A DNA stretch of 64,000 nt from Gemmatimonadales bacterium (GCA_036555275.1 DATBLR010000091.1:8888-72887); one strand, 5' to 3'; shown: positions 2,092 through 58,233, numbered from the stretch's first letter. The notes: generated by a model not told the origin, from the sequence alone. A program made the numbers and translations.

Positions 2092-5055
2092 TCATCCCCG
2101 TTCCGGCTTCGGGGTCCGGCGCCGCGCCTGGGGTGGCAGGCGGTTCAGGACCTCGAGGAGCTCACTCGTGTCCGACTTCGTTACGATCGTGGCGACCTGT
2201 CCCCGAAGTGCCGATTGCTCCGCCTCAGTCAGGTCCTTGAAGGTGAAGATCAGCACGGGGATGTCGCGGGTGGCCGGCTGTGCGTGGAGTCGCTTCAGCA
2301 CTTCGAACCCGCTCATGCCGGGCATGATCAGGTCCAGAACGATCACATCGGGCAGCGCTTCATTGGCCAGCCGAATGGCCGCTTCGCCCTCGTAGGCTCG
2401 GAGGGCCAGGAAGCCACGCCGCTCGAGGGTCTCGGCGAGAAGATCCACCGTCTCATGGTGATCATCCACGACCAGCACCGCCGTGGGGCGGGCTTGAGCG
2501 CGTGGCGGTACTGCCCGGCGCACAGCCGCCACCAGGTCATCACGGCTGACTGGCTTCACCAGCCACTCCGCGGCCCCGAGGCCCACTCCCCGCTCGCGAT
2601 CGTCGGTAATGGAGACGACGACCACCGGGATCTGCTCGGTGTCGGCGACGGCCCGGAGCCTGGCGAGAACCTCCAGCCCGTCCTGGTCGGGGAGGAGGAC
2701 ATCGAGGGTGATTGCCGCCGGCCGGAGCCGCTCCGCCATCTCGACGGCCTGAGCGCCGGTGACCGCGTGCGCCACCGCGTAGCCGTGTTCGCGCAGATAG
2801 TGGGACAGGAGCTCGCCAGCCGCCGGGTCATCCTCGACGACCAGGATCAGCGGTCCCTCCGCCCGATCGACCATCGGAGCCGGTGCGACCGCAGGGGACT
2901 TGCGATATCCCAGCGGCTCCAACGGCAGCGAGAAGGTAAAGGTCGATCCCACTCCTGGACTGCTCTCGACCCAGATCGCTCCACCGTGCAGCTGGACCAG
3001 CCGGCGTGTCAGCGCGAGCCCGAGGCCAGTCCCCGACTCCTCCCGGGAGACCACCGACCCGACCTGCTCGAACTCCAGGAAGATGCGTTCCTGATCCTCC
3101 GCTGCGATCCCGATGCCGGTGTCCGCCACCGAGACCTGGATGCGCCGATCCGCCCCCGACGACGGGTCCGCCGCCACCACGCGGGCCGTGACCCGGATTC
3201 GACCCCCCTCAGGTGTGAACTTGATCGCGTTGCTCAGCAGGTTGTACAGCATTTGCTTGAACTTGGAGCGATCGGCGGTCAACTCGGGCAGGTCGGCGGG
3301 GGTCTCCACCTGCACGGTCAGGCGCTTGCCGATCGCGAGAGACTCGACCAGCTGCTGCACCTCGCCAATGGCCTGGGCTGGAGGGAACGCGACGAGCTCC
3401 AGAGTCAGGCGCCCCGCCTCGACTTTCGCAAGATCCAGGATGTCGTTCACGAGCTGCAGCAGGTGGCGCCCGCTGGCGAGGATGTTTCCCACGTACCTGA
3501 CCTGCTTGTCGTTGAGGCCCCCGAACGTCCGGTCTTCCAGCAGCTCAGAGAATCCGATGATGGCGTTCAGCGGCGTCCGGAGTTCGTGACTCATGTTGGC
3601 GAGGAACTGCGATTTCGCGCGGTTGGCCGCCTCCGCCATCTGCCGGGCCCGCTGCTCCTCGGCCGCCCGCCGGTTCGCCGACAGGTCGGAGTAGACGGCA
3701 ACCAGGCCCGAGATCTTCCCGGCGGAATCGTGCAGCGGCGCGGTCGAGATGGCCACCTCGATCAAGGAGCCGTCCTTCCGCCGCCGGATGGTCTCGACCC
3801 CGCCGAGCTCTTCCCCCCGCATCATGCGGTCGTGCAGCTCCTGGGATTCCGCGATCCGGTCGCTCGGGATGTTCATCAGCTCCTGACCGACTACCTCCGC
3901 GCGGCTCCATCCGAACATTCGTTCGGCCCCGCCGTACCAGCTCACCACCCGACCATCGCCGTCGAAGCCGACGATGGCCTGCGGCGAGGCCTCCACCAGG
4001 GCACTCAGCTCATCGTGGGCCCGCCGCAGCGCCTCGCCCGCTTCCTTCCGTTCGGTGATGTCCAGGCAGGAGCCGATGAAGCCCAGGAACTCTCCGTCGG
4101 CCGACGACCGGGGCACTCCGGTCTCGATCATCCACCGGTACACGCCGTCCCGCCGCCTGAGTCGGTACTCGACGGTGTACGGCAGGCGCGACTCGTGGCT
4201 CGCATCGTACTGCTCGAGACAGGGACGGAGATCGTCAGGGTGGATCACCTCCTGCCAGCCGTGCCCCAACTCCTGTTCCCGCGTGCGGCCGGTAAACTCG
4301 AGCCACCCCTGATTGAAGTAGGTCACCATCCGGTCGGGGCCCGACATCCAGATCAGGACCGGCGCCGAGTTCGCCAAGGTGCGGAAGCGGGCCTCGCTCT
4401 CGCGAAGGCTCCGTTCGGCTGTACGCAGCTCGAGGTTCTGCTGGCGGAGTGACTCCTCCGCCTGCTGTAACTGCCCAATGGTCTGCCGCAGATCCTCGGT
4501 GCGTGCCTGGACCCGTGATTCCAGCTCTGCCTGCAGTTGCCTCAACTCCTGGTTCTTGAGCACCGCATCCTCGAAGCTGGAGATCAGCAGGTCGAGGATC
4601 TGTTCCCGCTCGGAGCCGATCGTGAACGTCGAGCCGAGGAAGGTGACCGAGACCCGCATCTGGGTCTTGGCCCTGCGGCGCAGCTCCAGGTTCTGGAGCA
4701 CGTTCCGGATCCGGGCCAGCAGATGCTCGCGCTCGTAGGGTTTGGTGATGTAGTTGTCGGCGCCGGCGGCCAGACCGCGCACGATGTCCATGGGGTCGTT
4801 GAGGCTGGTGAGGAGCAGGACCGGGACCTGGGCCGAGCCGGCCTCCGCCTTGATCCGGCGGCACACCTCATACCCATCGATCCCCGGCATGGTGATGTCG
4901 CTGATCACCAGGTCAAAGGCACTGTCGTGCATCAGAGCCAGCGCCTGCTCGCCGTTCGGCGCCACCGTGGCGTCGTATCCGCTTTCCTGCAGCAGCAGCG
5001 AAAGCGCCTCCGCCTGGGTCCGGCTGTCCTCGACGATGAGAATCTTCACGGGCAT
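2092..5055 (-). CDS. hybrid sensor histidine kinase: REC - coiled coil - PAS - PAS - HisKA - HATPase - REC - REC
   Basis: 987 aa. N-terminal receiver (KILIVEDS...[14 protein letters not shown]...ITKP), H-box [12 protein letters not shown]-boxes DTGIGI and GTGLGLAL, two C-terminal receivers. Start overlaps the cheB stop by 10 nt. Confidence 0.9.
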
Positions 5056-19769: not shown

Positions 19770-19855
19770 TGCTCGGGGGGAGGATCGAACTCCCACGGGG
19801 ATTGCTCCCCAAGGGATTTTAAGTCCCTTGCGTCTGCCAGTTTCGCCACCCGAGC
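19770..19855 (-). tRNA. tRNA-Leu (anticodon UAA), class II with long variable arm, no encoded CCA
   Basis: Reverse complement reads GCTCGGG TG GCG AAACTGGCAGA CGC A AGGGA CTTAAAA TCCCT TGGGGAGCAATCCCCGT GGGAG TTCGATC CTCCC CCCGAGC A. It folds by hand into a full cloverleaf (7-bp acceptor, 5-bp anticodon stem, TTCGATC T-loop). Confidence 0.9.
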
Positions 19856-19881
19856 GGCACCAGAAGTTAGCGCCTTCGGCC

Positions 19882-19934
19882 GGGGAACGGGGAACGGGGA
19901 ACGGGGAACGGGGAACGGGGAACGGGGAACGGGG
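19882..19934. repeat. tandem heptamer array (GGGGAAC) x 7.5, solo arm, immediately 5' of tRNA-Leu
   Basis: Read directly: ggggaac repeated perfectly from 19882 to 19934. No complementary arm nearby. Confidence 0.95.
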
Positions 19935-22842: not shown

Positions 22843-23086
22843 GGAGAACGGGAATGGGGAACGGGGAATAGGGAACGGGGAAAGGGGAACAGGGAACGGG
22901 GAACGGGACAAGCCTGGAGAATTCTCCCCGCGTCAACGCTGCAAGGGCACCATCGATGGCTGAGAGATCAGAGCCAAGTGCACTTCCCGTTCCCTGTTCC
23001 CCGTTCCCCTTTCCCCCCTCCGTCGGAGATCCAGAAGGGAAGACACGCCTCACTCCCGTTCCCCCTTCCCCGTTCCCCGTTCCCCC
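22843..23086. repeat. opposed heptamer-repeat arms, GGGGAAC family (left 22843-22908; right 22983-23018 and 23053-23086), unique ~75-nt centre
   Basis: Left arm ggagaacgggaatggggaacggggaatagggaacggggaaaggggaacagggaacggggaacggga. Right arms cttcccgttccctgttccccgttcccc... and ctcccgttcccccttccccgttccccgttccccc. Fills the convergent gap between the OMP stop and the recN stop, and enters the recN 3' end. Confidence 0.9.
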
Positions 23087-24732
23087 TTCAGCAACACCTC
23101 CGCGTGTCTCCGCGCCGTAACCGCATCCGCGTCTCCCAACATCCGCGCCAGTTCGGTCACCCGGTCCTCTCCATGAATCCGCTCCACGTCACTGGTGGCG
23201 ACGCCTTTGCGCGCGGCCTTGGAGACGACCAGATGCCGTTCGGCGCGGGCCGCGATCTGGGGCAGATGGGTGATCACCAGCACCTGCCGACCGGCCGACA
23301 CTTCCGCCAGCGCCTGGCCCACCTCCGCGCCGATCTCGCCACCGATCCCCTGGTCGATCTCGTCGAAGATCAGGGTCGGGATCTGGTCGTGCTTCACCAG
23401 CACGACCTTGAGGGCAAGCATGATGCGCGACAGTTCCCCGCCTGACGCGGACCGGGCCAGCGGTCGGGGCTCGAGGCCGGTGTTGAGCCGGACGGTGAAG
23501 GTGACCACTTCCTGACCGGTGGACTCGATCCGCTCGAGTGGTTGAAGTTCGACCTCGAGCTTCCCGCTGCTCAGCCCCAGCTTGGGAAGCAGCCGGGTGA
23601 CCGCCCTGCTCAGCCGACCTGCCGCCTCGCGCCGTTTGCCGGTCAGGGCATCCGCAGCGGCACGTCCGGCGCCTTCCGCCGCCACCCGACGCGCCGCCAG
23701 CTGTCGCAGGTCCAGGTCCGCGGTATCGAGAAGCTCCAGTTCGGCTCTCGCGAGATCCCGGGCCTCGAGCACCGCTTCGAGCGTCGCGCCATGCTTCTGT
23801 TTGAGCCGGTAGATGATGTCTCGCCGCCGTTCGATCTCCGCCAACCGTGCCGGGTCTTCCTGCAATCCGTCGGCGTATTCCCCGGCCAGCCGGGCCAGCT
23901 CCGTCAGGTTGGCGTAGGCGGCATCGAGCAATTCGCGCCACCCGCCGAGTGTGGGGTCAATCCGCTCCAGGGCTCCCAGCAGCCGGTCGGCCTGGCCGAG
24001 GGCGGGAAGCGCTCCGCCCTCCTCCCCGTCGAGGAGTTGCCCGAGGCGCCGGGCCTGATCGGCCAGGGTGGCGGCGTGGCTGAGTCTCCGCGCCTCGGTG
24101 TCGAGGCCGTCGTCCTCCCCGGGCTGGAGCCGGGCCGCGTCGATCTCCTGTACGACGTGGCGCAGGTAGTCGGCACGGCGGCGGACCTCGTCCCGCCTGT
24201 TCGCGAGGGCCGCTTCTTCCTCCGACACCGAACGGAGCGCCGCGCAGGCCTCAGCGAGCGCGGCCCGCTCCGGAGCCGCCCCGGCATAGGCATCCAGAAT
24301 CTCCCGTTGCGCCTCCGCGTGAAGCAGGGACTGGGTCTCATACTGCCCGTGCAGATCCACCAGCACGCTGCCGATCCGGGCCAGGACCCCGATCGTGGTC
24401 GGGCTCCCGTTCACCCACGCCTTGGAGCGGCCATCGGCGCCGACCTCGCGGCGAATGACCAGTTGACCCTCTTCGATATCAATACCCTGGTCCTCCAGCC
24501 GGCGACGCTGGACGGGATCCTCGACCTCGAAGGCGCCCTCCAGAACGGCGCGGGGAGTGCCCGGGCGAACCATCCCGCTCTCGGCCCGGGCTCCGAGCAG
24601 GAGCGCCACGGCATCCACCAGCATCGACTTCCCCGCCCCGGTCTCGCCGGTGAGGACGTTGAGGCCAGGGCCCAGTTCCAGGGTTACTTCCGCGATCGTG
24701 ACCAGATCGCGGACCCGCAGCTCACGGATCAC
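23050..24732 (-). CDS. recN: DNA repair protein RecN
   Basis: ORF 23050..24765. Likely GTG start at 24732 forms a GTGA overlap with the nadK stop. LNVLTGETGAGKSMLVDAVALLLG, C-terminal LIFDEIDQGIGG. The last ~12 codons (KGERGTGKGERE) are encoded by a GGGGAAC-family repeat. Confidence 0.92.
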   Translation of the reverse strand: MIRELRVRDLVTIAEVTLELGPGLNVLTGETGAGKSMLVDAVALLLGARAESGMVRPGTPRAVLEGAFEVEDPVQRRRLEDQGIDIEEGQLVIRREVGADGRSKAWVNGSPTTIGVLARIGSVLVDLHGQYETQSLLHAEAQREILDAYAGAAPERAALAEACAALRSVSEEEAALANRRDEVRRRADYLRHVVQEIDAARLQPGEDDGLDTEARRLSHAATLADQARRLGQLLDGEEGGALPALGQADRLLGALERIDPTLGGWRELLDAAYANLTELARLAGEYADGLQEDPARLAEIERRRDIIYRLKQKHGATLEAVLEARDLARAELELLDTADLDLRQLAARRVAAEGAGRAAADALTGKRREAAGRLSRAVTRLLPKLGLSSGKLEVELQPLERIESTGQEVVTFTVRLNTGLEPRPLARSASGGELSRIMLALKVVLVKHDQIPTLIFDEIDQGIGGEIGAEVGQALAEVSAGRQVLVITHLPQIAARAERHLVVSKAARKGVATSDVERIHGEDRVTELARMLGDADAVTARRHAEVLLKGERGTGKGERE

Positions 24733-27506: not shown

Positions 27507-27622
27507 CGGCGTTCAGCCTCGGTCAGTGTACAGCGTACAGGGTTCAGCGTACAGGGTTCAGGGTCTAACACCGGGCCTTGGTCTAAGACCCTGAACCCTG
27601 AACCCTGTACGCTGTACGCTGT
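27507..27622. repeat. opposed heptamer-repeat arms, GTTCAG/GTACAG family, between dxs start and ispA stop
   Basis: Left arm ...cagcgtacagggttcagcgtacagggttcagggtc. Short centre taacaccgggccttggtctaa. Right arm gaccctgaaccctgaaccctgtacgctgtacgctg. Both arms use the same heptamers in a different order. Confidence 0.9.
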
Positions 27623-29926: not shown

Positions 29927-30074
29927 GGCGTTCGCTGAGGCGTTCAGCGTTCAGCGTAGAGGGTTCAGGGCCGGACCCTTCAGAGTCTAACTAAGGAGAA
30001 CGCTCCGTCGTCTAGCCCGGAATGGTGTGCCGGGCACCCCTGAACGCTGTACGCTGTGCCCTGAACGCTGCCCC
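29927..30074. repeat. opposed heptamer-repeat arms, GTTCAGCG family, ~66-nt unique centre, between xseA start and folD stop
   Basis: Left arm ggcgttcgctgaggcgttcagcgttcagcgtagagggttcaggg. Right arm cccctgaacgctgtacgctgtgccctgaacgctgcccc. Confidence 0.9.
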
Positions 30075-39581: not shown

Positions 39582-40391
39582 TCAGGAAGTGTTCCTCTTG
39601 CGCTGCAGCCCGTTCAGATCTTGCAACGTTCTCACGCCCCGCTCCCGCGCCAGCAGAATCAGCCGGTCCAGCACCTCGGCCGTGGCGAGGGCGTCGCCCG
39701 CGGCCCGGTGCCGGGCCCGATTCTCGAGCCCGAAGTACAGGCTCAAACTGTCCAGGCTCCGCGATTCGAGGTGGGGCAGGAGGCGGCGGGCCAGGCGGAC
39801 GGTGCACAGTCGGGGACCCGTCAACCGGAGCGCCCGGGCGCGACGAATCTCGGCGCTCAGGAACCCCCAGTCGAACCGGACGTTGTGGGCGACGAAGATC
39901 CGTCCGGCCAGCGCGCCGAGCAGCTGGTCCGCGACCTGCTCGAAGCCCGGTGCCTTGGCCACCATGGCCTGGGTGATGTTGGTAAGGCCCTGGATCCGCA
40001 CCGGGATGTGAACGCCGGGATTCACCAGCGACTCGAACACGATCTCGCGGCGCGCGCCCTGCACCACCACGACGGCGACGTCGGTGACACGGTCGGCGCC
40101 CCAGGCCCGCATGCCGGTGGTTTCCACATCGACCACCGCAAAGGCGCACTCCTCCACCAGCGGTGAACCCTGCGCCTCGGCGACCAGCGCCCAGCGCCCA
40201 TCCTCGAGCTGGGTCACCCGCGGGTCCGCCGCCAGCAGAGCCACGGCCAGACGCTCCGCCACGGCGGCCGGCGCATTGACCATGCCGAGCACCTCCCGGG
40301 CCAGGCGCCCGACCTCCAGCGGGCCGCCGGCCATCAGGGTCATGGCCCTTTCCGCGAGGGTCCGGTCAGGGATGCAGGCCAGGCCGGTCAT
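39582..40391 (-). CDS. DEDDh 3'-5' exonuclease (DNA polymerase III epsilon-like)
   Basis: 269 aa. FAVVDVETTG, FVAHNVRFDWGFL, RHRAAGDALATAEVL. Start overlaps the arginine deiminase stop by 4 nt. Confidence 0.85.
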   Translation of the reverse strand: MTGLACIPDRTLAERAMTLMAGGPLEVGRLAREVLGMVNAPAAVAERLAVALLAADPRVTQLEDGRWALVAEAQGSPLVEECAFAVVDVETTGMRAWGADRVTDVAVVVVQGARREIVFESLVNPGVHIPVRIQGLTNITQAMVAKAPGFEQVADQLLGALAGRIFVAHNVRFDWGFLSAEIRRARALRLTGPRLCTVRLARRLLPHLESRSLDSLSLYFGLENRARHRAAGDALATAEVLDRLILLARERGVRTLQDLNGLQRKRNTS

Positions 40392-41620
40392 GTCGCACCG
40401 CGCCGCAGCGGCAGGGTCATGCAGCGCGGGCCACCCCCGCCCCGGACCAGCTCGTCCCCGTCGACGGTGATGACCGTGCGGTGCTTGGTATCGAGCCAGT
40501 CGTCAAAGGCGACGAAATCCACGCTGGAGACCGGCCGGAAGCCCGCCTGCTTCAGGGCCTCGATGGTCTCCTCGTTGCGGCGGTAGCCCACCACCATCCC
40601 GGGCTTGAGAGCCACCATGTTGCAGCCCGAGGCCCACTGTTCCCGCTCCTGCATCGAGCGGTGGGTGCCACCGGCGAAGATCGGGGTGAGCGGGCACCCG
40701 ACCTCCCGCAGGGCAGCGAAGAAATCCGGCATTTCGCGCACTCCGTCATGGCCCTTCTTGCGGTGCAGCACGGCCAGGCGCTCCGGGCCGATGAAGTAGG
40801 GCGGGTACACCACGCACAGCTCCCGATCCACCTGGGTGAACAGCATATCGAGATGGATCGCGGTCGGTTCCTTCGGCATCACGACCACCAGCACGTCGCT
40901 GACCTCGGTCCGCTCGAACAGCACCTCGGTGAGGTGATCGATGGCCGAGGGAGTGGATCGTTCGCTGAAGCCGATCACCAGGAGGTCCTGTCGCAGCATG
41001 TGAATGTCACCACCCTCGAGGGTGTAGTCGCTGCGCCGCTCCTCCGACCCATCGTACAGGAGCCCTTCGTTCCCCAGCGCGGGGTGGAACGCGAACAGGG
41101 TCTTGATGAGCAGCTCCTCCGTCCAGCGCACGCCGTGGCGCATCGACCCCACCACCGCGTGCCGGCCGATGATCACCCCGATGTCACGGGGGAAGAACAG
41201 GTTCGGCAGCGGCGGCAGCATGTAGCCCACTGAGTTGAGCGCCCTGGCAATGGCCCCGCCCTGCTGTTCCACACCCTCCACGATCAACCGCGCCAGGGCC
41301 CGCGGCTCGAGATCGTTGAGTCGCCGGCCCAGCTCACCCTCCGGCACGACATCCAGGGTGGCCCGAATGAAGAATTGCCGCGCGTCCTCCCGCTCCAGGG
41401 CCTCGGCGAGAAGGTCGGCCACCTGGTAGACCGTGGCGAACCGCTGCAGCACGGCCACGAACCGGCGATGCTCCCGTCGAGCGCTCTCGACCTGAATGAT
41501 GTCGTCGTACAGATAGGCGCCTTTGTTGCCCGGCGTTACCGCACGAAGCTCCGCCCCCGGCGTGTGGACGAGCACCGCTTCCAGCAGGCCGATCTCGCTC
41601 GTGACGTTGAGGGGGGGCAT
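40388..41620 (-). CDS. arginine deiminase family protein
   Basis: 410 aa. N-terminal VTSEIGLLEAVLVHTPGAEL, C-terminal GGGGPRCMTLPLRR (catalytic Cys motif of the guanidino-modifying superfamily). Confidence 0.8.
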   Translation of the reverse strand: MPPLNVTSEIGLLEAVLVHTPGAELRAVTPGNKGAYLYDDIIQVESARREHRRFVAVLQRFATVYQVADLLAEALEREDARQFFIRATLDVVPEGELGRRLNDLEPRALARLIVEGVEQQGGAIARALNSVGYMLPPLPNLFFPRDIGVIIGRHAVVGSMRHGVRWTEELLIKTLFAFHPALGNEGLLYDGSEERRSDYTLEGGDIHMLRQDLLVIGFSERSTPSAIDHLTEVLFERTEVSDVLVVVMPKEPTAIHLDMLFTQVDRELCVVYPPYFIGPERLAVLHRKKGHDGVREMPDFFAALREVGCPLTPIFAGGTHRSMQEREQWASGCNMVALKPGMVVGYRRNEETIEALKQAGFRPVSSVDFVAFDDWLDTKHRTVITVDGDELVRGGGGPRCMTLPLRRGAT

Positions 41621-41636
41621 GGCTTGAGAAACTAAT

Positions 41637-42170
41637 AGCGTTCAGGGTTCAGCGTTCAGGGTTCAGGGGGGCCGGTGCGGGCGCTCGGGCGAGACCGCGA
41701 AGGGACGTTGACATCCTCGCTAGCATGCGGCCAACCTCCGACGCGAGTCCGAGCAGGGTGTCGGCATCAGCTCTAGCCAGGTAGCCTACCCGGTGCGCCA
41801 CGAGGACCTGCGTCTCCAGCTCAAGCAGCGACCCGTTGGCGATCGAGAGATGACGGAGGTACTCGCGACGTGAGGAGCGCCCGTAGCCCTCGGCGATATT
41901 GCACGGTATCGAGACCGATGCCCGCCGCATCTGGGCGCTGAGGCCGTACCGCTCATGATCTGGGAATCGAGTGGCCTCTTTGTACACGGCTTCCGTCAGC
42001 TGCATGGCCCTGACCCAGACGGTCAGGCGCTGATGACCCCGACGGACCCTGATTCTATCCATGACGAGGAAGGTGACGCCCACCGCATTCGGCCGGGCGA
42101 CCACAATGACGCCGCACAGCCCACGGCAACGCACACCCTCTGCACGCTGAACCTTGCACCCTGAACGCTC
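41637..42170. repeat. opposed GTTCAG(C/G)G heptamer arms (41637-41671 and 42136-42170) enclosing the four-helix-bundle gene
   Basis: Left arm agcgttcagggttcagcgttcagggttcagggggg. Right arm ccctctgcacgctgaaccttgcaccctgaacgctc. The whole ORF lies in the loop. Confidence 0.85.
41649..42062 (-). CDS. four-helix-bundle protein (23S rRNA intervening-sequence protein / Avd-like family)
   Basis: ORF 41649..42134. Likely start is MDRIRVRRGHQRLTVW at 42062. Signature ERYGLSAQMRRASVSIPCNIAEGYGRSSRREYLRHLSIANGSLLELETQV. Lies between opposed GTTCAG(C/G)G repeat arms, and its last codons are repeat-encoded. Confidence 0.85.
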   Translation of the reverse strand: MDRIRVRRGHQRLTVWVRAMQLTEAVYKEATRFPDHERYGLSAQMRRASVSIPCNIAEGYGRSSRREYLRHLSIANGSLLELETQVLVAHRVGYLARADADTLLGLASEVGRMLARMSTSLRGLARAPAPAPLNPER

Positions 42171-42174
42171 GGCT

Positions 42175-42801
42175 TCACCGATTCGTCAACGCATAACTCA
42201 ACGTCTCCAGCTCCAGCGCCAGGTTAACCGTCTTGACCACCACATCATCGGGCACCGAGAGCTGGACCGGCGTGAAATTGAGGATCGCCTTGACCCCCTG
42301 CGCGACGCACCGCTCGGTAACCTGCTGGGCCACGTCGCCCGGCGTGACGATCACCGCGATCTCCACCGGGTGCAGGCGCAACTCGGCGTCCAGATCCCTC
42401 ACGTCCTTCACGGTCAGGCCGTTCCACGCCCGACCAATCTTGGTGGGGTCGGAATCGAAGATCGCCACGATCTCGAAGCCACGCTGTCGGAACCCCCGAT
42501 ACTGTACCAGCGCGCTGCCGATCTTCCCGGCTCCGATCATCGCGACCCGGTACACACGGCCCAGGCCGAGAATCTCCCGGAGCCGGCGTACCAGCTCCAC
42601 CACCGAATAGCCCAGCCCCCGCTTGCCGAAGGACCCGAAGAATGAGAGGTCCTTGCGCACCTGAGCCGACGTCGTCCCACCCCTGGCAGCAAGGGCTCCG
42701 GAACTGACGGTCTCGATGCCCTGCCCCTCGAACTCCTCCAGGAAGCGCAGGTACAGCGAGAGACGGCGAACGGTGGATTCGGCGATTTTCCGCATCGGCA
42801 T
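42175..42801 (-). CDS. rex: redox-sensing transcriptional repressor Rex
   Basis: ORF 42175..42939. Likely start is MPMRKIAESTVRRLSLYLRFL at 42801 (or 42795). Winged helix plus Rossmann fold (VAMIGAGKIGSAL). Confidence 0.92.
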   Translation of the reverse strand: MPMRKIAESTVRRLSLYLRFLEEFEGQGIETVSSGALAARGGTTSAQVRKDLSFFGSFGKRGLGYSVVELVRRLREILGLGRVYRVAMIGAGKIGSALVQYRGFRQRGFEIVAIFDSDPTKIGRAWNGLTVKDVRDLDAELRLHPVEIAVIVTPGDVAQQVTERCVAQGVKAILNFTPVQLSVPDDVVVKTVNLALELETLSYALTNR

Positions 42802-42818
42802 TGTGAAAGTTTTCACAA
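42801..42818. promoter_or_regulatory. Rex operator (perfect TTGTGAA-N4-TTCACAA palindrome) abutting the rex start codon
   Basis: Sequence TTGTGAAAGTTTTCACAA read directly at 42801-42818. It matches the established Rex box consensus TTGTGAAnnnnTTCACAA. Confidence 0.75.
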
Positions 42819-42853
42819 ATCTACTCGAATGCCTCGGCCGGGCAAAGGGACTG

Positions 42854-43648
42854 CTATTCGGGCAGGATGGAGACGGGGATCGCGCGATACAGACGGGCGA
42901 ACGTATCGGGGCCCAACTCGCCCGGTCGGATGGTCTCATGGAGACCGACTGAGGCCAGCCAGCTGACCACGTCGGAGACAGGTGCTCCGGTGAGGTCCCG
43001 GAGGGCGCGACTCAGTTGTTTGCGCCGGAAGCCGAACAGCCCAACGACGAACCGCCGGAAGGGGGCGATCTCCGCGTCGCTCACCAGCGGCTCCGGCCTC
43101 GGTCTCAGCCTGAGCACGGCCGAGCTCACCTTGGGGCGAGGCCGAAACGCTCCGGCGGGGACCGTGAACAGCCGTTCCACCGTCGTGACGGCCTGAACCC
43201 CCACGCTGAGAGCCCCATACTCCGCAGTCCCCGGGAGCGCCGCGACCCGATCTGCCACCTCCCTCTGCACCAGGTAGACGATGCAGACCGGCCGGGGTGG
43301 GCGCAGCGCCTTCTCGAGCAGCGGGGAGGTGATGTTGTAAGGGATGTTCCCGATGACGCGGAAACGTCCCTGCCCGACCAGCGCGTGCCAGTCCAGCTCG
43401 AGAGCATCACCGTGGATCAACGTGAGGTTGGGAAAATGTTGCCGCAGATGGGCGAGGAACGCCTGGTCCTTCTCGATCGCGAAGAGGTGCGGGGTCCGGG
43501 TTGCGAGCTGAGCGGTGAGACCACCAGGGCCCGGGCCGATCTCCAGGACAGCCTCGTCCCCCTCAATCTCCAGGGCGTCCGCGATGCGCCGGAGGATGCC
43601 AGGGTCGTAAAGGAAGTGCTGGCCGAGGCGTTTCTTGGGGCGGGGCAT
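42854..43648 (-). CDS. rsmA: 16S rRNA (adenine1518/1519-N6)-dimethyltransferase
   Basis: 264 aa. KKRLGQHFLYDPGILRRIADAL, VLEIGPGPGGLT. Confidence 0.92.
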   Translation of the reverse strand: MPRPKKRLGQHFLYDPGILRRIADALEIEGDEAVLEIGPGPGGLTAQLATRTPHLFAIEKDQAFLAHLRQHFPNLTLIHGDALELDWHALVGQGRFRVIGNIPYNITSPLLEKALRPPRPVCIVYLVQREVADRVAALPGTAEYGALSVGVQAVTTVERLFTVPAGAFRPRPKVSSAVLRLRPRPEPLVSDAEIAPFRRFVVGLFGFRRKQLSRALRDLTGAPVSDVVSWLASVGLHETIRPGELGPDTFARLYRAIPVSILPE

Positions 43649-43722
43649 GGGAGAACGGGGAACAGGGAACGGGGAACGGGGGAACGTAGCGACCGTTCCC
43701 CGTTCCCCGTTCCCTGTTCTCC
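43649..43722. repeat. heptamer-repeat hairpin, GGGGAAC family, between rsmA start and PP2C stop
   Basis: gggagaacggggaacagggaacggggaacgggggaacg, then tagcgac, then cgttccccgttccccgttccctgttctcc. Confidence 0.92.
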
Positions 43723-43727
43723 GCAGT

Positions 43728-50776: not shown

Positions 50777-52593
50777 TCCTGCGTCGCCCTTCGGCCGCGA
50801 CGCGTGGCCTGAAAACCCAGCGTTCGGAATTCCTCCGGATACTTCAGCTTCAGTTCCCGGGCCTTCTGATCCTTGAGGGCCAGCAGGGCGGACTTCTCCG
50901 CGCCGGTGGCCTGCCGGATCCTTTCGTTAAGCTCCCGCCACGTCTGAAACTCCGACCGGGCCTCGAGTTTGCGGCTTGCGGCCGCGAACAGATTGGCCTG
51001 GCCGGTGTAGTCCAACGGTATATCGGAGCTCGCGAGGCGAAGCCATTCGGCCCTCATTGCGTCGGAGAGAGTCTCCGGCGGGACGGCCACGCCCGGCTCA
51101 CGAAGGGTCAGCAGGACCTCAGCGAGCGCCCGGTACGAGGGCGTTTGAAACCACTCGGTCTGCATCGACTCGCGCCATCGGCTGCGCCATTCGTTGTCGG
51201 TAATCAGCAGCCGGAGCATCTGTTGCTCGGTCCTGGAACCGGCCTTTCGTGCGGGGGATCCTGACGAACTCGGCGGCTCAGCAGCTCGGAGGCCCGGCGG
51301 CTCCGCGGTCCGTGGAGCGGGCGCCTCCGCCGCCTCGTGTTCCAGCACCTTCTTGTCGACCCCGGATCGCTCGGCCACGAGCGAGAGGTAGAGTTCACGC
51401 TGGATCGGGTCCTTGGTGGCGCGAATGGTCGGGAGCAGACGATCCAGGGCGTCGCGCCGATGCTCGATCCCGCTGAACCAGCCCTTGCGGTCGAGCAGCT
51501 GGATCTTCCGTTCCATGATGTCGACCGCATCCCCGAGGATCCCCTCCAGCGCGGCCAATCCGCCACGCTGGACCAGGCTGTCGGGGTCTTCACCGGCGGG
51601 AAGGGTCGCGACCTTGACCCGCGTTTCGTGCCGCAGCAGCTCATCGCCGGCGCGGAAGGTGGCCCGGAGTCCCGCCATGTCGCTGTCGAGCAGCAGAATC
51701 GCCTGCGGAGCGTAGCGCTTGAGCAGGCCGGCCTGGTCCGGTGTCAGCGCGGTGCCCAGTGGAGCCACCACGTTCTCACAACCGGCCAGCACCAGGCGGA
51801 GCACGTCGAAGTATCCCTCCACAACAATGACGGCGCCGTCACGACGGATTGCGTTCTTGGCCGCGTGAAGGTTGTAGAGGGTCTGACCCTTCCTGAAGAT
51901 CGGGCTCTCGGGGGAGTTGAGGTATTTGGGCTCGCCAGGGCCCAGCAGCCGCCCACCGAAGCCCACGACCCGGCCACGCAGATCGTGGATCGGAAACAGC
52001 AGCCGGCCGCGGAACCGGGGGATGATGGTCCCATCCTCGCGACGCGCCAGCAGGCCGGCCTCGAGCATCACCGGCTCCTCCAGCCCGAGCGCCTTCATCG
52101 CCTGGACAAAGCCCTGGGCCCTCGGGGCGAAGCCCAGCTCGAAGGGCTCCACGGTTTCCAGCTCGACGTCCCGTCCCAGCAGGTAGCGTCGGGCATCCTC
52201 GGCGTCCGGCGCGTCGCGCAGCTGGCGGGCGAACCAGTCGTGAGCCATCGCAACGGCCTGGAACAACGGCTCCCGGGGATCGGGACCCTGGCGGGTGGAT
52301 TCCGGGATGACGATCCCGACCTTGCGGGCCACCTCGCGCACCGCCTCGGGATAGTCCAGGCCGAACCGTTTCATGTACCACGAGAACACGTCGCCGGACG
52401 CCTTGCAGACGAAGCAGTAGTAGCGTCCCTTCTTCGGGATCACCGCGAAGTTGCGGTGCTGGCCGCCGTGAAAGGGACAGGGGCCGCGGTAGTCGGAGCC
52501 GGTTCGCTTGAGGTCCACTGATTCGCCGATGATGGTGAGCAGGTCCGCGCTGTCGCGCACCTGCTCGATCACCTCGTCGGGAATCATGCTCAT
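50764..52593 (-). CDS. dnaG: DNA primase
   Basis: 609 aa. Zinc finger CPFHGGQHRNFAVIPKKGRYYCFVCKASGD, TOPRIM (VIVVEGYFDV...LLLDSDMAG). Confidence 0.93.
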   Translation of the reverse strand: MSMIPDEVIEQVRDSADLLTIIGESVDLKRTGSDYRGPCPFHGGQHRNFAVIPKKGRYYCFVCKASGDVFSWYMKRFGLDYPEAVREVARKVGIVIPESTRQGPDPREPLFQAVAMAHDWFARQLRDAPDAEDARRYLLGRDVELETVEPFELGFAPRAQGFVQAMKALGLEEPVMLEAGLLARREDGTIIPRFRGRLLFPIHDLRGRVVGFGGRLLGPGEPKYLNSPESPIFRKGQTLYNLHAAKNAIRRDGAVIVVEGYFDVLRLVLAGCENVVAPLGTALTPDQAGLLKRYAPQAILLLDSDMAGLRATFRAGDELLRHETRVKVATLPAGEDPDSLVQRGGLAALEGILGDAVDIMERKIQLLDRKGWFSGIEHRRDALDRLLPTIRATKDPIQRELYLSLVAERSGVDKKVLEHEAAEAPAPRTAEPPGLRAAEPPSSSGSPARKAGSRTEQQMLRLLITDNEWRSRWRESMQTEWFQTPSYRALAEVLLTLREPGVAVPPETLSDAMRAEWLRLASSDIPLDYTGQANLFAAASRKLEARSEFQTWRELNERIRQATGAEKSALLALKDQKARELKLKYPEEFRTLGFQATRRGRRATQDADG

Positions 52594-55145
52594 GGTGCGA
52601 ACTCCGCCACGGTCACGCCGGTGCCCCCCTGCGTGGGCGGGGCGAACCCGTGGCTCTTCACCCGCCGGTCATGCTGGAGCACCCGCCGCACCCGGTCGCG
52701 CACTACGCCGGTTCCCTTGCCATGGATGATCCGGAGGTACGGTTGTTCCGCGAGCACCGCCCGGTCGAGCGCGGCCACCACGGCCTGCTCGGCCTCGTCG
52801 CCGGTCATGCCACGAAGGTCAATGTCATACGAGGGAGCGGCGGATGAGGTGGATGAGGCGGACGGGCGGACCGGCGGAGCGGCGGACCGGCGGTCTCCCC
52901 TCACTTCGGTGAGGCTGCCGGGATCAACCACCAGTTTCAACGACCCGACCCGCACGACGGCCTTTCCATCCCCCCGAAGTTCCATGAATTCCCCTACCGA
53001 GCCGCTGGCCAGCCGAACCCGGGCGCCCGGCTTCATCCCGTCCGCCGCTCCGCCGGTCCGCCGATCCGCCTCCTCCAAGCTCCTGAGGGCCGCGGCCTCC
53101 GCGGCCGCCGCGGCCTCCACCGCTCGCCGAGCCTCGCGAGCGGCCGCGTCGTCACCCGCCGCCGCTTGCCGAATCGCCGCCTCGACTTTCTCCCGCGCCT
53201 CGAGCAGATAGCTTCGAGCCTGTTCCCGGGCTGCCTTCTCCGCCGCACGCTCCCGCTGGTGGAGCGCCTTGTCGCGAAGTGCCTGGGTCTCCTCCCGGGC
53301 CACCTGCGCCGCGGCCCGCGATTCTACCTCGGACAGCCGGGCCGAGAGCTCCTGTTCCCGTGCGCGCAGCTCCCGCTCCCGCTGTTCGACCGCGCTGAGC
53401 AGGGCGTCGAGATTCCGCTCCGCCTCGGGGACCTGGGTCTCGGCATCGGCCAGCACATCCTCCCGAAGGCCCAGCCGCCGGGCGATGGCCAGGCCGTAGG
53501 AGCGCCCGGGAACGCCCTTCAGCAGCCGATAGGTAGGCTGGAGCGTCGCGGCGTCGAACTGGAGCGAGGCGTTGACGATGCCTGGCGCGACGGTCGCCAG
53601 GCGCTTGAGGGCGCCGAGATGGGTCGTGGCAAGGGTAATGGCTCCGCGACGGGTCAGCGCGATCAGCGCAGCTCCGGCCAGCGCCCCACCTTCGGCGGGA
53701 TCGGTGCCGCCTCCGATCTCATCGATCAGCACCAGGGTCTCGTCGTCCGCCTCGTCGAGGATGACGCGGAGGGCAGTGATGTGGGCGCTGAAGGTCGAGA
53801 GGCTCGCGGCGATCGACTGCCGATCACCGATGTCGGCGTAAACCCGCGTGAACACGGGGAGAGCACTCCCCGGCCCGATCGGCGGAATGATCCCGCTCTG
53901 AGTCAGCGCCACGCTCAATCCCACCGCCTTGAGCAGCACCGACTTCCCGCCGGTGTTGGGGCCGGAGAGGAGGACGCAGCGTTCATTGCCTTCCAACGTC
54001 AGGTCAAAAGGGACGACGTCCGGGCGGCTCGGCGGCTCGGCTCGGCGGCTCGAGGGCTCGGTTGCACGGCTTGGTAGACTGGCGGGGCCAGGTGGGCCGG
54101 CCGAGCCGGCGAGCAACAACGGATGCCGCCCGTTCACGATCCTGAGCTCCGCGGGCGCCGCGGAGACCTGCGGTGCGTGGCCGTCAACATCCACGGCCCA
54201 GCGTGCCCGGGCCACCAGATCGTCCAGCGCCACGCAGGCGGCGTGCAATGCTTCGAGCTCAGCATGTGCGGGGCGCAGCATGTCGGTGAGCTCCCGGAAG
54301 ATGCGCAGCTCCTCCCGCGCCGCCCGGGACTCAGCCTCGCGAAGCGCGTTCCCCAGCTCGATCGCGGCCGTCGGCTCGAGGTAGAGCGTTGCACCGCTCG
54401 CCGATTCGCCGTGCACGAGGCCTTCGGGCCGGCCCCGCAGATCGCGGGGCACCGGGATCACATAACGTCCTTCCCGGAGGGTGACCCCGGCTTCGGCGCC
54501 CGTGGCGCGAAGAATCGCCTCCAGCTTCTGGACCAGTCGCTCGCGCGCGCTGCGGATGTCGCTGCGGGCGGCCGCAAGCCCCGGGCTGGCAGTGTCGCGG
54601 AGGGTTGCGTCATCGTCGAGGGCCTGCTCCAGCCGCCGCTCGAATGCCTTGTCCGGGGCGGGCAGCTCAAGGCTCGCCAGGTGCGGCGCCCACGGCAGCA
54701 CCCGGCGAAGCTCGCCCATGACCACCCGGGCCGCGGTGAGCGTCCGCCGCACCGCCAGGAGTTCGGGTCCGTCGAGCACGCTGCCGCCAATCCGGAGCCG
54801 GGCCAGCACCGGGGCAAGCGCCGGCACCGGCTCCGCCACCATTCCCTTCCCCTCCCGAGCCAGTCTCGCCAGCTCCTCCACCCGCAGCAACTCCTCGCGG
54901 ATCCAAACCGGATCTCGCCGTGGACTCCTGCCGCGCACACTCGCCGCGCCTAACTCACCGGCTGCCCGCTCGGCGATCTCCTCGACGACCGCGGCGAACT
55001 CGAGCGCCTCAAGCGCCTCGGCCCACTCGTCGGCTCCTGCCGCCGCGTCGCCGAGCCGCCGAGCCGCCGAAACAGCGGACGGGGTGCCAGCGTCCGCGGA
55101 CACTAGCACCCCGTCGGGGAGTTTGATCTGGGTCTGGTCGGTCAT
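52590..55145 (-). CDS. mutS2: endonuclease MutS2 (MutS domain V ATPase + Smr)
   Basis: ORF 52590..55340. Likely start is MTDQTQIKLPDG at 55145. LLSGPNTGGKSVLLKAVGL, LIDEIGGGTDP, C-terminal Smr IDLRGMTGDEAEQAV...LRIIHGKGTG. Confidence 0.92.
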   Translation of the reverse strand: MTDQTQIKLPDGVLVSADAGTPSAVSAARRLGDAAAGADEWAEALEALEFAAVVEEIAERAAGELGAASVRGRSPRRDPVWIREELLRVEELARLAREGKGMVAEPVPALAPVLARLRIGGSVLDGPELLAVRRTLTAARVVMGELRRVLPWAPHLASLELPAPDKAFERRLEQALDDDATLRDTASPGLAAARSDIRSARERLVQKLEAILRATGAEAGVTLREGRYVIPVPRDLRGRPEGLVHGESASGATLYLEPTAAIELGNALREAESRAAREELRIFRELTDMLRPAHAELEALHAACVALDDLVARARWAVDVDGHAPQVSAAPAELRIVNGRHPLLLAGSAGPPGPASLPSRATEPSSRRAEPPSRPDVVPFDLTLEGNERCVLLSGPNTGGKSVLLKAVGLSVALTQSGIIPPIGPGSALPVFTRVYADIGDRQSIAASLSTFSAHITALRVILDEADDETLVLIDEIGGGTDPAEGGALAGAALIALTRRGAITLATTHLGALKRLATVAPGIVNASLQFDAATLQPTYRLLKGVPGRSYGLAIARRLGLREDVLADAETQVPEAERNLDALLSAVEQRERELRAREQELSARLSEVESRAAAQVAREETQALRDKALHQRERAAEKAAREQARSYLLEAREKVEAAIRQAAAGDDAAAREARRAVEAAAAAEAAALRSLEEADRRTGGAADGMKPGARVRLASGSVGEFMELRGDGKAVVRVGSLKLVVDPGSLTEVRGDRRSAAPPVRPSASSTSSAAPSYDIDLRGMTGDEAEQAVVAALDRAVLAEQPYLRIIHGKGTGVVRDRVRRVLQHDRRVKSHGFAPPTQGGTGVTVAEFAP

Positions 55146-55204
55146 CCCGCCTGAAGTCCGGCGAGCGACACGGGTCTCTTGCTCATGACGGCCATGGAAG
55201 GGAA

Positions 55205-55405
55205 TCAAATCCGTGGCGGGCGCGGATAGGTGCGGCGAGTCTTGCGGTGCGCCGCGTTCTGCTTTCGTTTCCGCTTCTCGCTGGGTTTCTCGTAGTGGCG
55301 ATGTTTGCGCAAATCGGAGAGAATCCCGGCTTTTTCGCACTTCTTCTTGAACCGCTTGAGGGCCCGTTCAAAGCTCTCGTCATCATGGATGATGACTTCG
55401 GACAT
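55205..55405 (-). CDS. rpsU: 30S ribosomal protein S21
   Basis: ORF 55205..55486. Start is [48 protein letters not shown] at 55405. Confidence 0.92.
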
Positions 55406-58089: not shown

Positions 58090-58233
58090 AACAGGGAACG
58101 GGGAACGGGGAACAGGGAACGGGACGAACTCTTATGCAATGGGCGTAAGGGCGTCATGAGGGGCATGATTACCGTTCCCCGTTCCCCGTTCCCTGTTCCC
58201 CCGTTTCTTTTCCCCGTTCCCGTTTCCCCGTTC
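58090..58233. repeat. opposed heptamer-repeat arms, GGGGAAC family, ~47-nt unique centre, between pspA start and AAA+ stop
   Basis: Left arm aacagggaacggggaacggggaacagggaacggga. Right arm ccgttccccgttccccgttccctgttcccccgtttcttttccccgttcccgtttccccgttc. Confidence 0.92.

Follow-up and report, generated by a model that had tools for sequence, protein, structure and literature searches.

A four-helix-bundle gene between inverted heptamer arrays at a rex–arginine deiminase junction shares the anatomy of 23S rRNA intervening sequences

Intervening sequences (IVS) of rRNA that contain an ORF have been known since the early 1990s, and we know of no accepted function for either the element or its protein. 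Avd, the accessory protein of diversity-generating retroelements (DGRs), is a pentamer that binds nucleic acid and reverse transcriptase. In Coxiella, the IVS has a 28-bp terminal stem which RNase III cuts at the first of three to four tandem heptamers; the tandem heptamers, three to four copies of GACAGAT, precede the ORF and vary in copy number by strain (PMC4990558). The Xanthomonas campestris homologue of the protein is given as a homopentamer in the same article (PMC4990558, citing Lin et al. 2006). Heptameric SSRs, GGGAATC in Xanthomonas and GGGGAYT in Nostoc, have been reported as a heptamer excess with no link to four-helix-bundle genes, and convergent (inverted) heptamer pairs number 70–75 per Xanthomonas genome (PMC4692102). 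In surveys of DGRs and CRISPR, PF05635 is mentioned solely as Avd-like or CRISPR-linked.

The locus described here lies in a 64,000-nucleotide stretch of DNA from a Gemmatimonadales bacterium (GCA_036555275.1 DATBLR010000091.1:8888-72887), which as a whole is called the window and whose first letter is position 1. Read along the minus strand, the order is rex, 5' arm, leader, a 137-aa ORF, 3' arm and a gene of the arginine deiminase (ADI) family. The upstream host gene, rex, encodes the redox-sensing repressor and is listed as the longest ORF (42175-42939); its orthologues are 206–208 aa long, and the true start is therefore probably the methionine of MPMRK. The 5' arm, GCGTTCAGGGTGCAAGGTTCAGCGTGCAGAGGG, consists of four degenerate G/T-rich heptamers on the sense strand of the ORF (42136-42169/42170) and begins 8 nt downstream of the rex stop codon. 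It is followed by a leader of 73 nt (42063-42135), by the four-helix-bundle gene itself, 137 aa from its ATG (41649-42062, PF05635/TIGR02436), and by the 3' arm, CCCCCTGAACCCTGAACGCTGAACCCTGAACGCT, of four near-perfect heptamers on the same strand (41637-41670/41671). From the end of this arm it is ~16 nt to the start codon of the downstream ADI gene (40388-41620). The arms stand close to the gene on either side and take up the spacer between the stop codon upstream and the start codon downstream. The whole cassette is ~0.53 kb (about 534 nt), with arms of 34 nt each that are 82% complementary and separated by 465 nt.

The first-pass annotation of the window had proposed opposed GTTCAG(G/C) heptamer arrays around the 137-aa ORF, and these are indeed present at 41637-41670 and 42136-42169. 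Its further statement that the arms precisely enclose the ORF is right for the 3' arm, which overlaps the stop codon, but not for the 5' arm, which ends 73–74 nt upstream of the ATG. The 3' arm (the left one in the window) is a tandem array of GTTCAGG in 4.1 copies or, alternatively, of a perfect 14-mer in 2.1 copies, and GTTCAGSGTTCAG, allowing up to one mismatch, has 11 matches in the window against 0.11 expected. The same arm covers the stop codon and the last six codons; because 22 terminal nucleotides of the ORF fall inside it, the C-terminal PLNPER is repeat-encoded, as had been claimed, and the C-termini ALNAEP and PTPER of orthologues, each directly before the stop, come from the same repeats read in other frames.

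The leader (42063-42135) is long enough to hold an RBS or a promoter of the gene's own; a match to the sigma-70 consensus, however, was found neither in it nor elsewhere at the locus. In an Rfam scan of the window a single tRNA was the only hit; the cassette has no Rfam match and does not lie in helix 25 or 45 of a 23S rRNA. When the RNA of the whole element is folded, the MFE and centroid structures both contain a long-range stem between the arms, with a total folding energy that is unremarkable (z=-1.45). Three further independent metagenome assemblies agree with the cassette at every base, and it is therefore real, no assembly artefact, and not hypervariable; among the four identical assemblies there is no variation in arm copy number of the kind seen between strains of Coxiella.

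The protein is a clear member of its family, matching PF05635 with E=2e-35 and 121.5 bits (cutoff 33.8) and TIGR02436 with 114.9 bits (cutoff 24). Its sole PDB match is 2GSC, X. campestris XCC0516 (E=1e-28, residues 4–126). Among the orthologues at rex-ADI sites it is under purifying selection, with dN/dS of 0.10–0.22. We rejected a HEPN-like Rx4-6H motif (RxEYLRH) as a conserved catalytic motif, since four orthologues (L024, L030, L032 and L033) have Y or F in place of its histidine. Weak matches to bAvd (PF22296) and to the DGR Avd equivalog (NF033474) raise the idea of an orphan Avd left behind by a diversity-generating retroelement. Both scores, however, stay below the curated cutoffs (27.5 bits against 40 and 31 bits against 80, respectively), the gene is held at its site by purifying selection among species whose synonymous sites are saturated, and no reverse transcriptase (RVT families) was found among the called genes up to 10 kb on either side, on contigs with the identical ADI gene, or within 6 kb of the site in relatives. 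We consider such an origin very improbable. The earlier remark that the window holds no reverse transcriptase is supported for called genes over these 10 kb on each side, but the scan excluded the remaining window.

Two ORF-less elements of the cassette's arm family, already reported in the first-pass annotation, were confirmed in the window: a hairpin of the form GTACAGC/GTTCAGG ... CCTGAAC/GCTGTAC at 27524-27622, with a loop of 7–30 nt, and a second one of the GTTCAG/GTACAG unit family at 29940-30070, with a loop of about 70 nt. Inverted pairs of tandem 7-, 8- and 9-mers occur in at least 12 intergenic places in the window and also inside the MutS2 ORF. Similar hairpins being this abundant, the arms alone are not special, and the specificity of a gene in the loop therefore needed testing. 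One could indeed suppose that one arm is a hairpin or terminator of rex and the other an unrelated one of ADI, with the gene between them by chance; the wealth of intergenic tandem-repeat hairpins in the window would suit this, as would the fact that rex-ADI spacers without the gene often carry such hairpins. Yet each flank has one arm only and neither arm folds alone, and there are no terminator-like sites (a short G+C-rich hairpin followed by a T-run) in 41300-42500.

Metagenome contigs were scanned with an alignment of diverse family members, which gave 80 loci whose proteins are 39–55% identical to that of the window. These and the Gemmatimonadales loci made up a census of 73 usable genes, with a score of at least 14 as the threshold for arms. 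The first-pass annotation had conceded that its reading would fall if other copies of the gene family lacked flanking arms, and this is not the case: arms were present in 57 of the 73 metagenome or MAG loci, most of the remainder having weaker heptamer arms, in 27 of 35 family members on viral contigs and in 5 of 6 on plasmids of named cyanobacteria and Gemmatirosa. Arms are thus found in about 80% of the gene family across phyla. Under identical scoring they flanked 46 of 69 family members but only 7 of 710 other ORF-defined genes in the same loci (Fisher p=3e-49), and under stricter scoring 34 of 69 against 3 of 710. In the 57 positive loci the period is 7 (51 loci) or 8 (6 loci), the medians are 31 nt (~4.4 units) for arm length and 89% for complementarity, and the loop measures 378–533 nt (median 416 nt). 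In 18 of them the 3' arm and the stop codon overlap, and in another 25 the arm begins no more than 30 nt after the stop (43/57 together). Outside the Gemmatimonadales, a four-helix-bundle gene lies in the loop of 12 of the 14 strictly defined tandem-repeat hairpins and one hairpin is ORF-less, and the arms there are therefore part of the cassette rather than of a genome-wide background.

The contexts in named genomes are diverse: the cassette adjoins an integrase in Calothrix brevissima, lies between cas6 and cas4 in Anabaena sp. 90 and between cmr2 and cmr3 in Picosynechococcus PCC 7003, and is found on a plasmid in Geminocystis and on a 1.1-Mb plasmid in Gemmatirosa kalamazoonensis, while in Nostoc PCC 7120 the 3' arm alone is left, adjoining a transposase. 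Such insertions into cas operons may explain the link between PF05635 and CRISPR in the surveys. Cumulatively, we show that arms of this architecture accompany PF05635/TIGR02436 genes family-wide, in several phyla, and are specific to them. This family-wide anatomy is the part of interest in the present work, the IVS-type cassette itself being already known; we found no prior report that generalises heptamer arms to four-helix-bundle genes in the full-text literature searched, subscription-only papers and database comments aside.

The closest homologues of the window protein (98%, 69% and 60% identity) are all found between rex and ADI in Gemmatimonadales. As the first-pass annotation had proposed, filled and empty sites in relatives were compared: a scan with the ADI protein retrieved the rex-ADI locus from 80 species. 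There are 11 distinct filled sites (the window, L001, L007, L015, L024, L030–L034 and L064, the last a decayed remnant), and in 11/11, including those in which the gene is inverted, inverted tandem-heptamer arms surround it. Around 50 species have an empty rex-ADI spacer of 14–380 nt, and none of these has GTTCAG arms; many hold ORF-less hairpins with quite different, species-specific units. Inserts of 1.7–3.7 kb in some rex-ADI spacers were considered as hairpin cargo and discarded, their ORF translations alone suggesting ordinary genes; the high inverted-repeat score of one such insert, that of L043, stems from a REP-like palindrome. Taken together with the absence of terminator-like sites, the empty spacers dispose of the possibility, raised in the annotation, that the arms are ordinary ADI and rex terminators. 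The gene has arms at all filled orthologous sites and in other phyla as well, as against ~1% of other genes; they travel with the gene, family-wide, and this therefore is no chance pairing of neighbouring terminators, an explanation we regard as barely conceivable.

At these orthologous sites the repeat unit is specific to the lineage and changes together on both arms: GTTCAGG, GGTCAGG, GGCAGGG with CCTGCCA, GTGTAGG, GGAGTAGG and GGTGGCAGG. The best partner of a 5' flank is the 3' flank of its own locus in 7 of 10 loci. Differing units with complementarity kept show that the arms co-evolve. Across the window, L001 and L015 synonymous sites are saturated (pS 0.70–0.77) and the GTTCAG unit is still common to all three, from which it follows that the arms change more slowly than neutral DNA does. 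The gene points the same way as rex and ADI in the window, L001, L007 and L024, and inverted relative to them in L015, L030–L034 and L064. On a neighbour-joining tree of ADI, filled sites are confined to one clade, with empty sites nested within it, and both orientations occur in this clade, the inverted one on early branches. The simplest reading is one gain in the ancestor of the clade, followed by at least two inversions and at least three losses, and inversions are what recombination between inverted arms would be expected to produce. In the Gemmatimonadales lineage the cassette thus looks vertically inherited and not actively mobile.

The G-rich arm is the 5' one in 55 of 57 cassettes (p=2e-14), and among strict tandem-repeat hairpins, ORF-less ones included, the 5' arm is G-rich in 28, C-rich in 1 and neither in 3. 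A hairpin reads identically on either strand, and the handedness therefore belongs to the structure and not to the orientation of the gene. The dinucleotide AG is present in 51 of the 57 units, which, anchored on it, give the consensus AG-(G/T)-(G/T)-(G/T)-(T/G)-(C/T), i.e. AG-K-K-K-K-Y. Arm units turn up again at 12 other places in their own loci (control units: 0.4), and the repeat units are therefore genome-specific. Relative to neighbouring genes the orientation is unbiased (about 27 vs 28, a rough, ORF-based count), which gives no hint that the cassette depends on transcripts reading through from its neighbours. We also rejected the idea that the heptamers are there to provide stops in all three reading frames: all frames are stopped in 17 of the 57 3' arms and none in 22.

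A direct connection to rRNA is provided by a metagenome locus, L102, which is a genuine 23S rRNA (Rfam LSU) containing a four-helix-bundle ORF flanked by GGGGCGA/TCGCCCC heptamer arms, with the same handedness as in other cassettes. On the strength of its anatomy and that of Coxiella, the insert at rex-ADI is therefore an object of the same kind as the rRNA IVS, placed in the transcript of another host. The first-pass annotation had described the window locus as mimicking rRNA IVS architecture; the shared anatomy is borne out in L102 and Coxiella, but it looks like shared descent of an architecture rather than mimicry. The IVS of rRNA appears to be one instance of a cassette that is more widespread and for the most part undescribed, and the reading we favour, as probable though by no means secure, is that the window element is a non-ribosomal copy of the 23S IVS cassette, a four-helix-bundle gene between inverted heptamer arrays.

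What the arms do is a matter of inference, and in our order of preference RNA pairing comes first, DNA inverted repeats second and binding of a factor third. The arms may pair in the transcript of either strand, giving a duplex of ~30 bp that would isolate the insert from the host RNA, and in rRNA copies this duplex would be the site of excision by RNase III. As inverted repeats in DNA, they could mediate the observed inversions and possibly also gain and loss. They might in addition be binding sites for a sequence-specific factor, for which the pentameric four-helix-bundle protein is the candidate, a role suggested by the conserved unit consensus and the ~4–5 units per arm, without any binding data. 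The uniform handedness may serve to avoid exposing C-rich, Rho-loading RNA before the partner arm has been made. Mismatch asymmetry, used as a test of RNA-level selection, gave no significant difference (57 of G:U type vs 44 of A:C type), and this, like the unbiased orientation of the gene, speaks against arms that do nothing but direct RNA processing. The window's own arms, only 82% complementary, and the unremarkable folding energy of the whole element also count against the reading we favour.

Four cassettes lie within host ORFs, namely leuS, two methyltransferases of Eco57I/MmeI type that share one insertion site, and another methyltransferase. In 4/4, the host frame is the +2 frame of the four-helix-bundle gene and stays free of stops over ~450 nt; averaged over the family, this frame has about 4 stops per 110 codons. 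In such intragenic copies, with the host frame open, a cut would do harm, and severing by RNase III therefore cannot be universal. A conjectural and rather doubtful reading takes the cassette for a general 'intervening sequence', harmless in rRNA, in operon spacers and even in protein-coding genes, where translation of its arms would yield Gly-rich and Pro/Ser-rich linkers.

Recent change at the DNA level is evident in cyanobacteria. The cassette is present in Picosynechococcus PCC 7003 and absent from PCC 7002, with flanks 95.8% identical, and Anabaena sp. 90 has a filled site where that of Dolichospermum is empty or replaced, with flanks 99.3% identical; in the 245-nt filler of this 'empty' site no trace of a decayed four-helix-bundle gene was found. 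Whether gain, loss or replacement, this is turnover of DNA, which the RNA model does not explain. It would come naturally to a mobile DNA element in which the arrays are terminal inverted repeats, the protein is a mobility or DNA-binding factor acting with a host or distant enzyme, and ORF-less heptamer hairpins are MITE-like deletion derivatives. Many unrelated insertion contexts (cas operons, 23S rRNA, ORF interiors, phage contigs) speak for such an element, as do a unit consensus and handedness resembling a recognition sequence and the recurrence of units within their own locus, in the window at 27.5 kb and 29.9 kb. Nonetheless, neither the window junctions nor the comparison of PCC 7003 with PCC 7002 shows a target-site duplication, and transposase and reverse transcriptase are absent nearby. 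Near-identical second copies were not found, the plasmid matches being coding-only at 68–73% identity with unconserved arms; the 64 kb of the window hold one copy, and the loci of 80 relatives (loci, not whole genomes) hold none elsewhere, and the Gemmatimonadales pattern is one of a single ancient gain followed by vertical descent. Moreover, the 5' arm in PCC 7003 has a 16-nt tandem duplication that includes the last 9 nt of cmr2, and part of the array at least therefore grew in place. Keeping these points in mind, we consider such mobility possible, but less likely than the non-ribosomal IVS cassette.

Alternatively, the protein may act in trans on heptamer arrays genome-wide, recognising them and perhaps seeding or maintaining them, with the arms of its own gene merely the nearest targets, through autoregulation or as a by-product. 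The Nostocales and Xanthomonas, for which a heptamer excess is reported (PMC4692102), also encode the family, the only PDB relative comes from X. campestris, and plasmid matches are limited to cyanobacteria and Gemmatirosa. More than 12 heptamer/octamer hairpins in the Gemmatimonadales window, the genome specificity of the units and a number of units per arm (~4.4) close to the five subunits reported for the X. campestris homologue (PMC4990558) point the same way. This proposal sits badly with the rarity of ORF-less hairpins near the gene outside the Gemmatimonadales (1/14 strict hairpins), with the several unrelated unit families in a window that has a single four-helix-bundle gene, and with the many rex-ADI hairpins in clades never showing the gene at that site; binding data are nonexistent. 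We hold it to be doubtful, and equally conjectural, in the absence of binding data, is its fullest form, that TIGR02436 proteins are sequence-specific heptamer-binding pentamers and the cassettes the source or organiser of bacterial heptamer arrays. If this were true, however, it would join the rRNA IVS ORFs, the function of the non-DGR relatives of Avd and the heptamer excess (STRR, GGGAATC and similar) of cyanobacteria, Xanthomonas and Gemmatimonadota.

Returning to the IVS-type cassette that we prefer, if its architecture is general then the rRNA IVS would be this cassette in just one of its insertion contexts, most of which lie outside rRNA. Natural variants would then be far more numerous, tractable hosts (Nostoc, Picosynechococcus, Xanthomonas) would come within reach, and the long-noted over-representation of heptamers in some phyla would have a possible reason. 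The repeat consensus, the fixed handedness, the co-variation of the arms, the pairs of filled and empty strains and the intragenic copies all provide experimental handles. For annotation, the cassette accounts for genes labelled 'four helix bundle protein' that are wedged into cas operons and other conserved gene pairs.

Among known systems, MITEs and REP/BIME elements resemble the cassette in having terminal inverted repeats, lying in intergenic DNA, forming hairpins and coexisting with ORF-less versions. The cassette arms, in contrast, are built of tandem repeats and vary in sequence from copy to copy, and no target-site duplication, transposase or high-copy identical family was found for the cassette. 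Avd has a related four-helix-bundle fold and matches the window protein weakly at the profile level, but the window gene stays under the Avd cutoffs and has no reverse transcriptase nearby. The cyanobacterial STRR, Xanthomonas GGGAATC and Nostoc GGGGAYT repeats are, like the cassette arms, intergenic tandem 7-mers with G-rich units, and the unit of one cassette, GGGACTG (L101), is the complement of the STRR1 unit CCCCAGT. The literature on heptameric SSRs takes a G-quadruplex or regulatory view of such arrays, whereas those of the cassette form a complementary pair around one gene family.

The closest system remains the ORF-containing 23S IVS of Coxiella burnetii and Leptospira, with its 'S23p' ORF. 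The window cassette differs from it in occupying the mRNA operon spacer between rex and ADI rather than rRNA, and in a protein under purifying selection, where the Coxiella IVS ORF is reportedly decaying and probably untranslated; excision by RNase III has been demonstrated for rRNA copies only. Several features are common to both: the protein family is identical, a long terminal stem closes the loop that holds the ORF, the sizes are similar (428–759 nt against about 534 nt), and tandem heptamers occupy the stem region in Coxiella (GACAGAT, three to four copies), in the 23S rRNA of L102 (GGGGCGA) and likewise in the window.

Two pairs of closely related strains differ at a site occupied by the cassette, a four-helix-bundle (PF05635/TIGR02436) gene enclosed by inverted tandem-repeat arms. 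Between cmr2 and cmr3, Picosynechococcus PCC 7003 (L173) carries a cassette where PCC 7002 (L216) has only a 12-nt spacer, and the flanks of the two sites are 95.8% identical. At the cas6-cas4 site, with flanks 99.3% identical, the cassette of Anabaena sp. 90 (L171), whose 5' array is ~290 nt long, is matched in Dolichospermum UHCC 0315A (L217) by an unrelated 245-nt filler.

Cassettes were also found inside protein-coding genes: within the leuS editing domain (L101, 2451-2875), within Eco57I/MmeI-type methyltransferase genes (L093, 1164-1614; L127, 2463-2919), which share one common insertion site, and within an N6_N4 methyltransferase gene that also bears DUF559 (L135, 2465-2914). Relative to the cassette gene, the host frame is +2 in all four, and it runs through the whole insert without a stop; on average, the +2 frame of four-helix-bundle genes of this family contains ~4 stops per 110 codons.

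Repeat arrays lie within a coding sequence of the window as well. The MutS2 ORF (52590-55340, minus strand; Pfam MutS_V and Smr) contains inverted tandem octamer arrays, GGCGGACC / GGTCCGCC, at 52850-52890 and 53037-53077, and a second such pair at 54023-54049 and 55042-55068. The octamer arrays are translated in frame into Gly/Ala/Arg-rich and Pro/Ser-rich linkers, and the segment ahead of the Smr domain has array-encoded linkers on both sides.

Across Gemmatimonadales relatives (L008-L087), the hairpins in the spacer between rex and the arginine deiminase (ADI) gene (~3300-4000 in most loci) are built from tandem units that are very unlike between species, including GGGAAGGAC, GTCGAGAG, GGCTATT, GCGGAAT and GACCGGTAAC, and nearly every one of these hairpins has a G-rich 5' arm. 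In the most basal species the spacer is 14-15 nt long and without hairpins.

Other repeats were observed in these regions. REP-like palindromes of GTCATCCCGAGGAGCGTAGCGACGAGGGATC ... GATCCCTCGCTCCGCTCGGGATGAC type occur repeatedly in the rex-ADI spacer or the insert flanks (L036, L038, L043, L044, L052), in some cases within the loop of a tandem-repeat hairpin, and the spacer of L060 (~3630-4000) is full of copies of a tandem ~46-nt unit (attccaagttccggactcttgccggggttaaccaaccc...), an array broken by an assembly gap. In the window, a minus-strand tRNA gene (19770-19855) has a perfect (CGGGGAA) x7.7 array (19881-19934) 26 nt away, and hairpins built from this unit family occur at 22846-23089, 43641-43723 and 58090-58233.

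The cassette on Gemmatirosa kalamazoonensis plasmid 1 (L168, ~1330-1870) carries octamer units (GGGCAGGA), with an additional complete small hairpin of this unit immediately upstream of its 5' side, giving the order G-rich array, C-rich array, four-helix-bundle gene, second C-rich array. Finally, L102 contains a true intervening sequence of 23S rRNA at positions 1-530 (Rfam assigns 1-2183 to LSU_rRNA_bacteria, with 5S after it), in which a four-helix-bundle ORF is accompanied by GGGGCGA / TCGCCCC heptamer arms, alike in handedness to those of the window's cassette.
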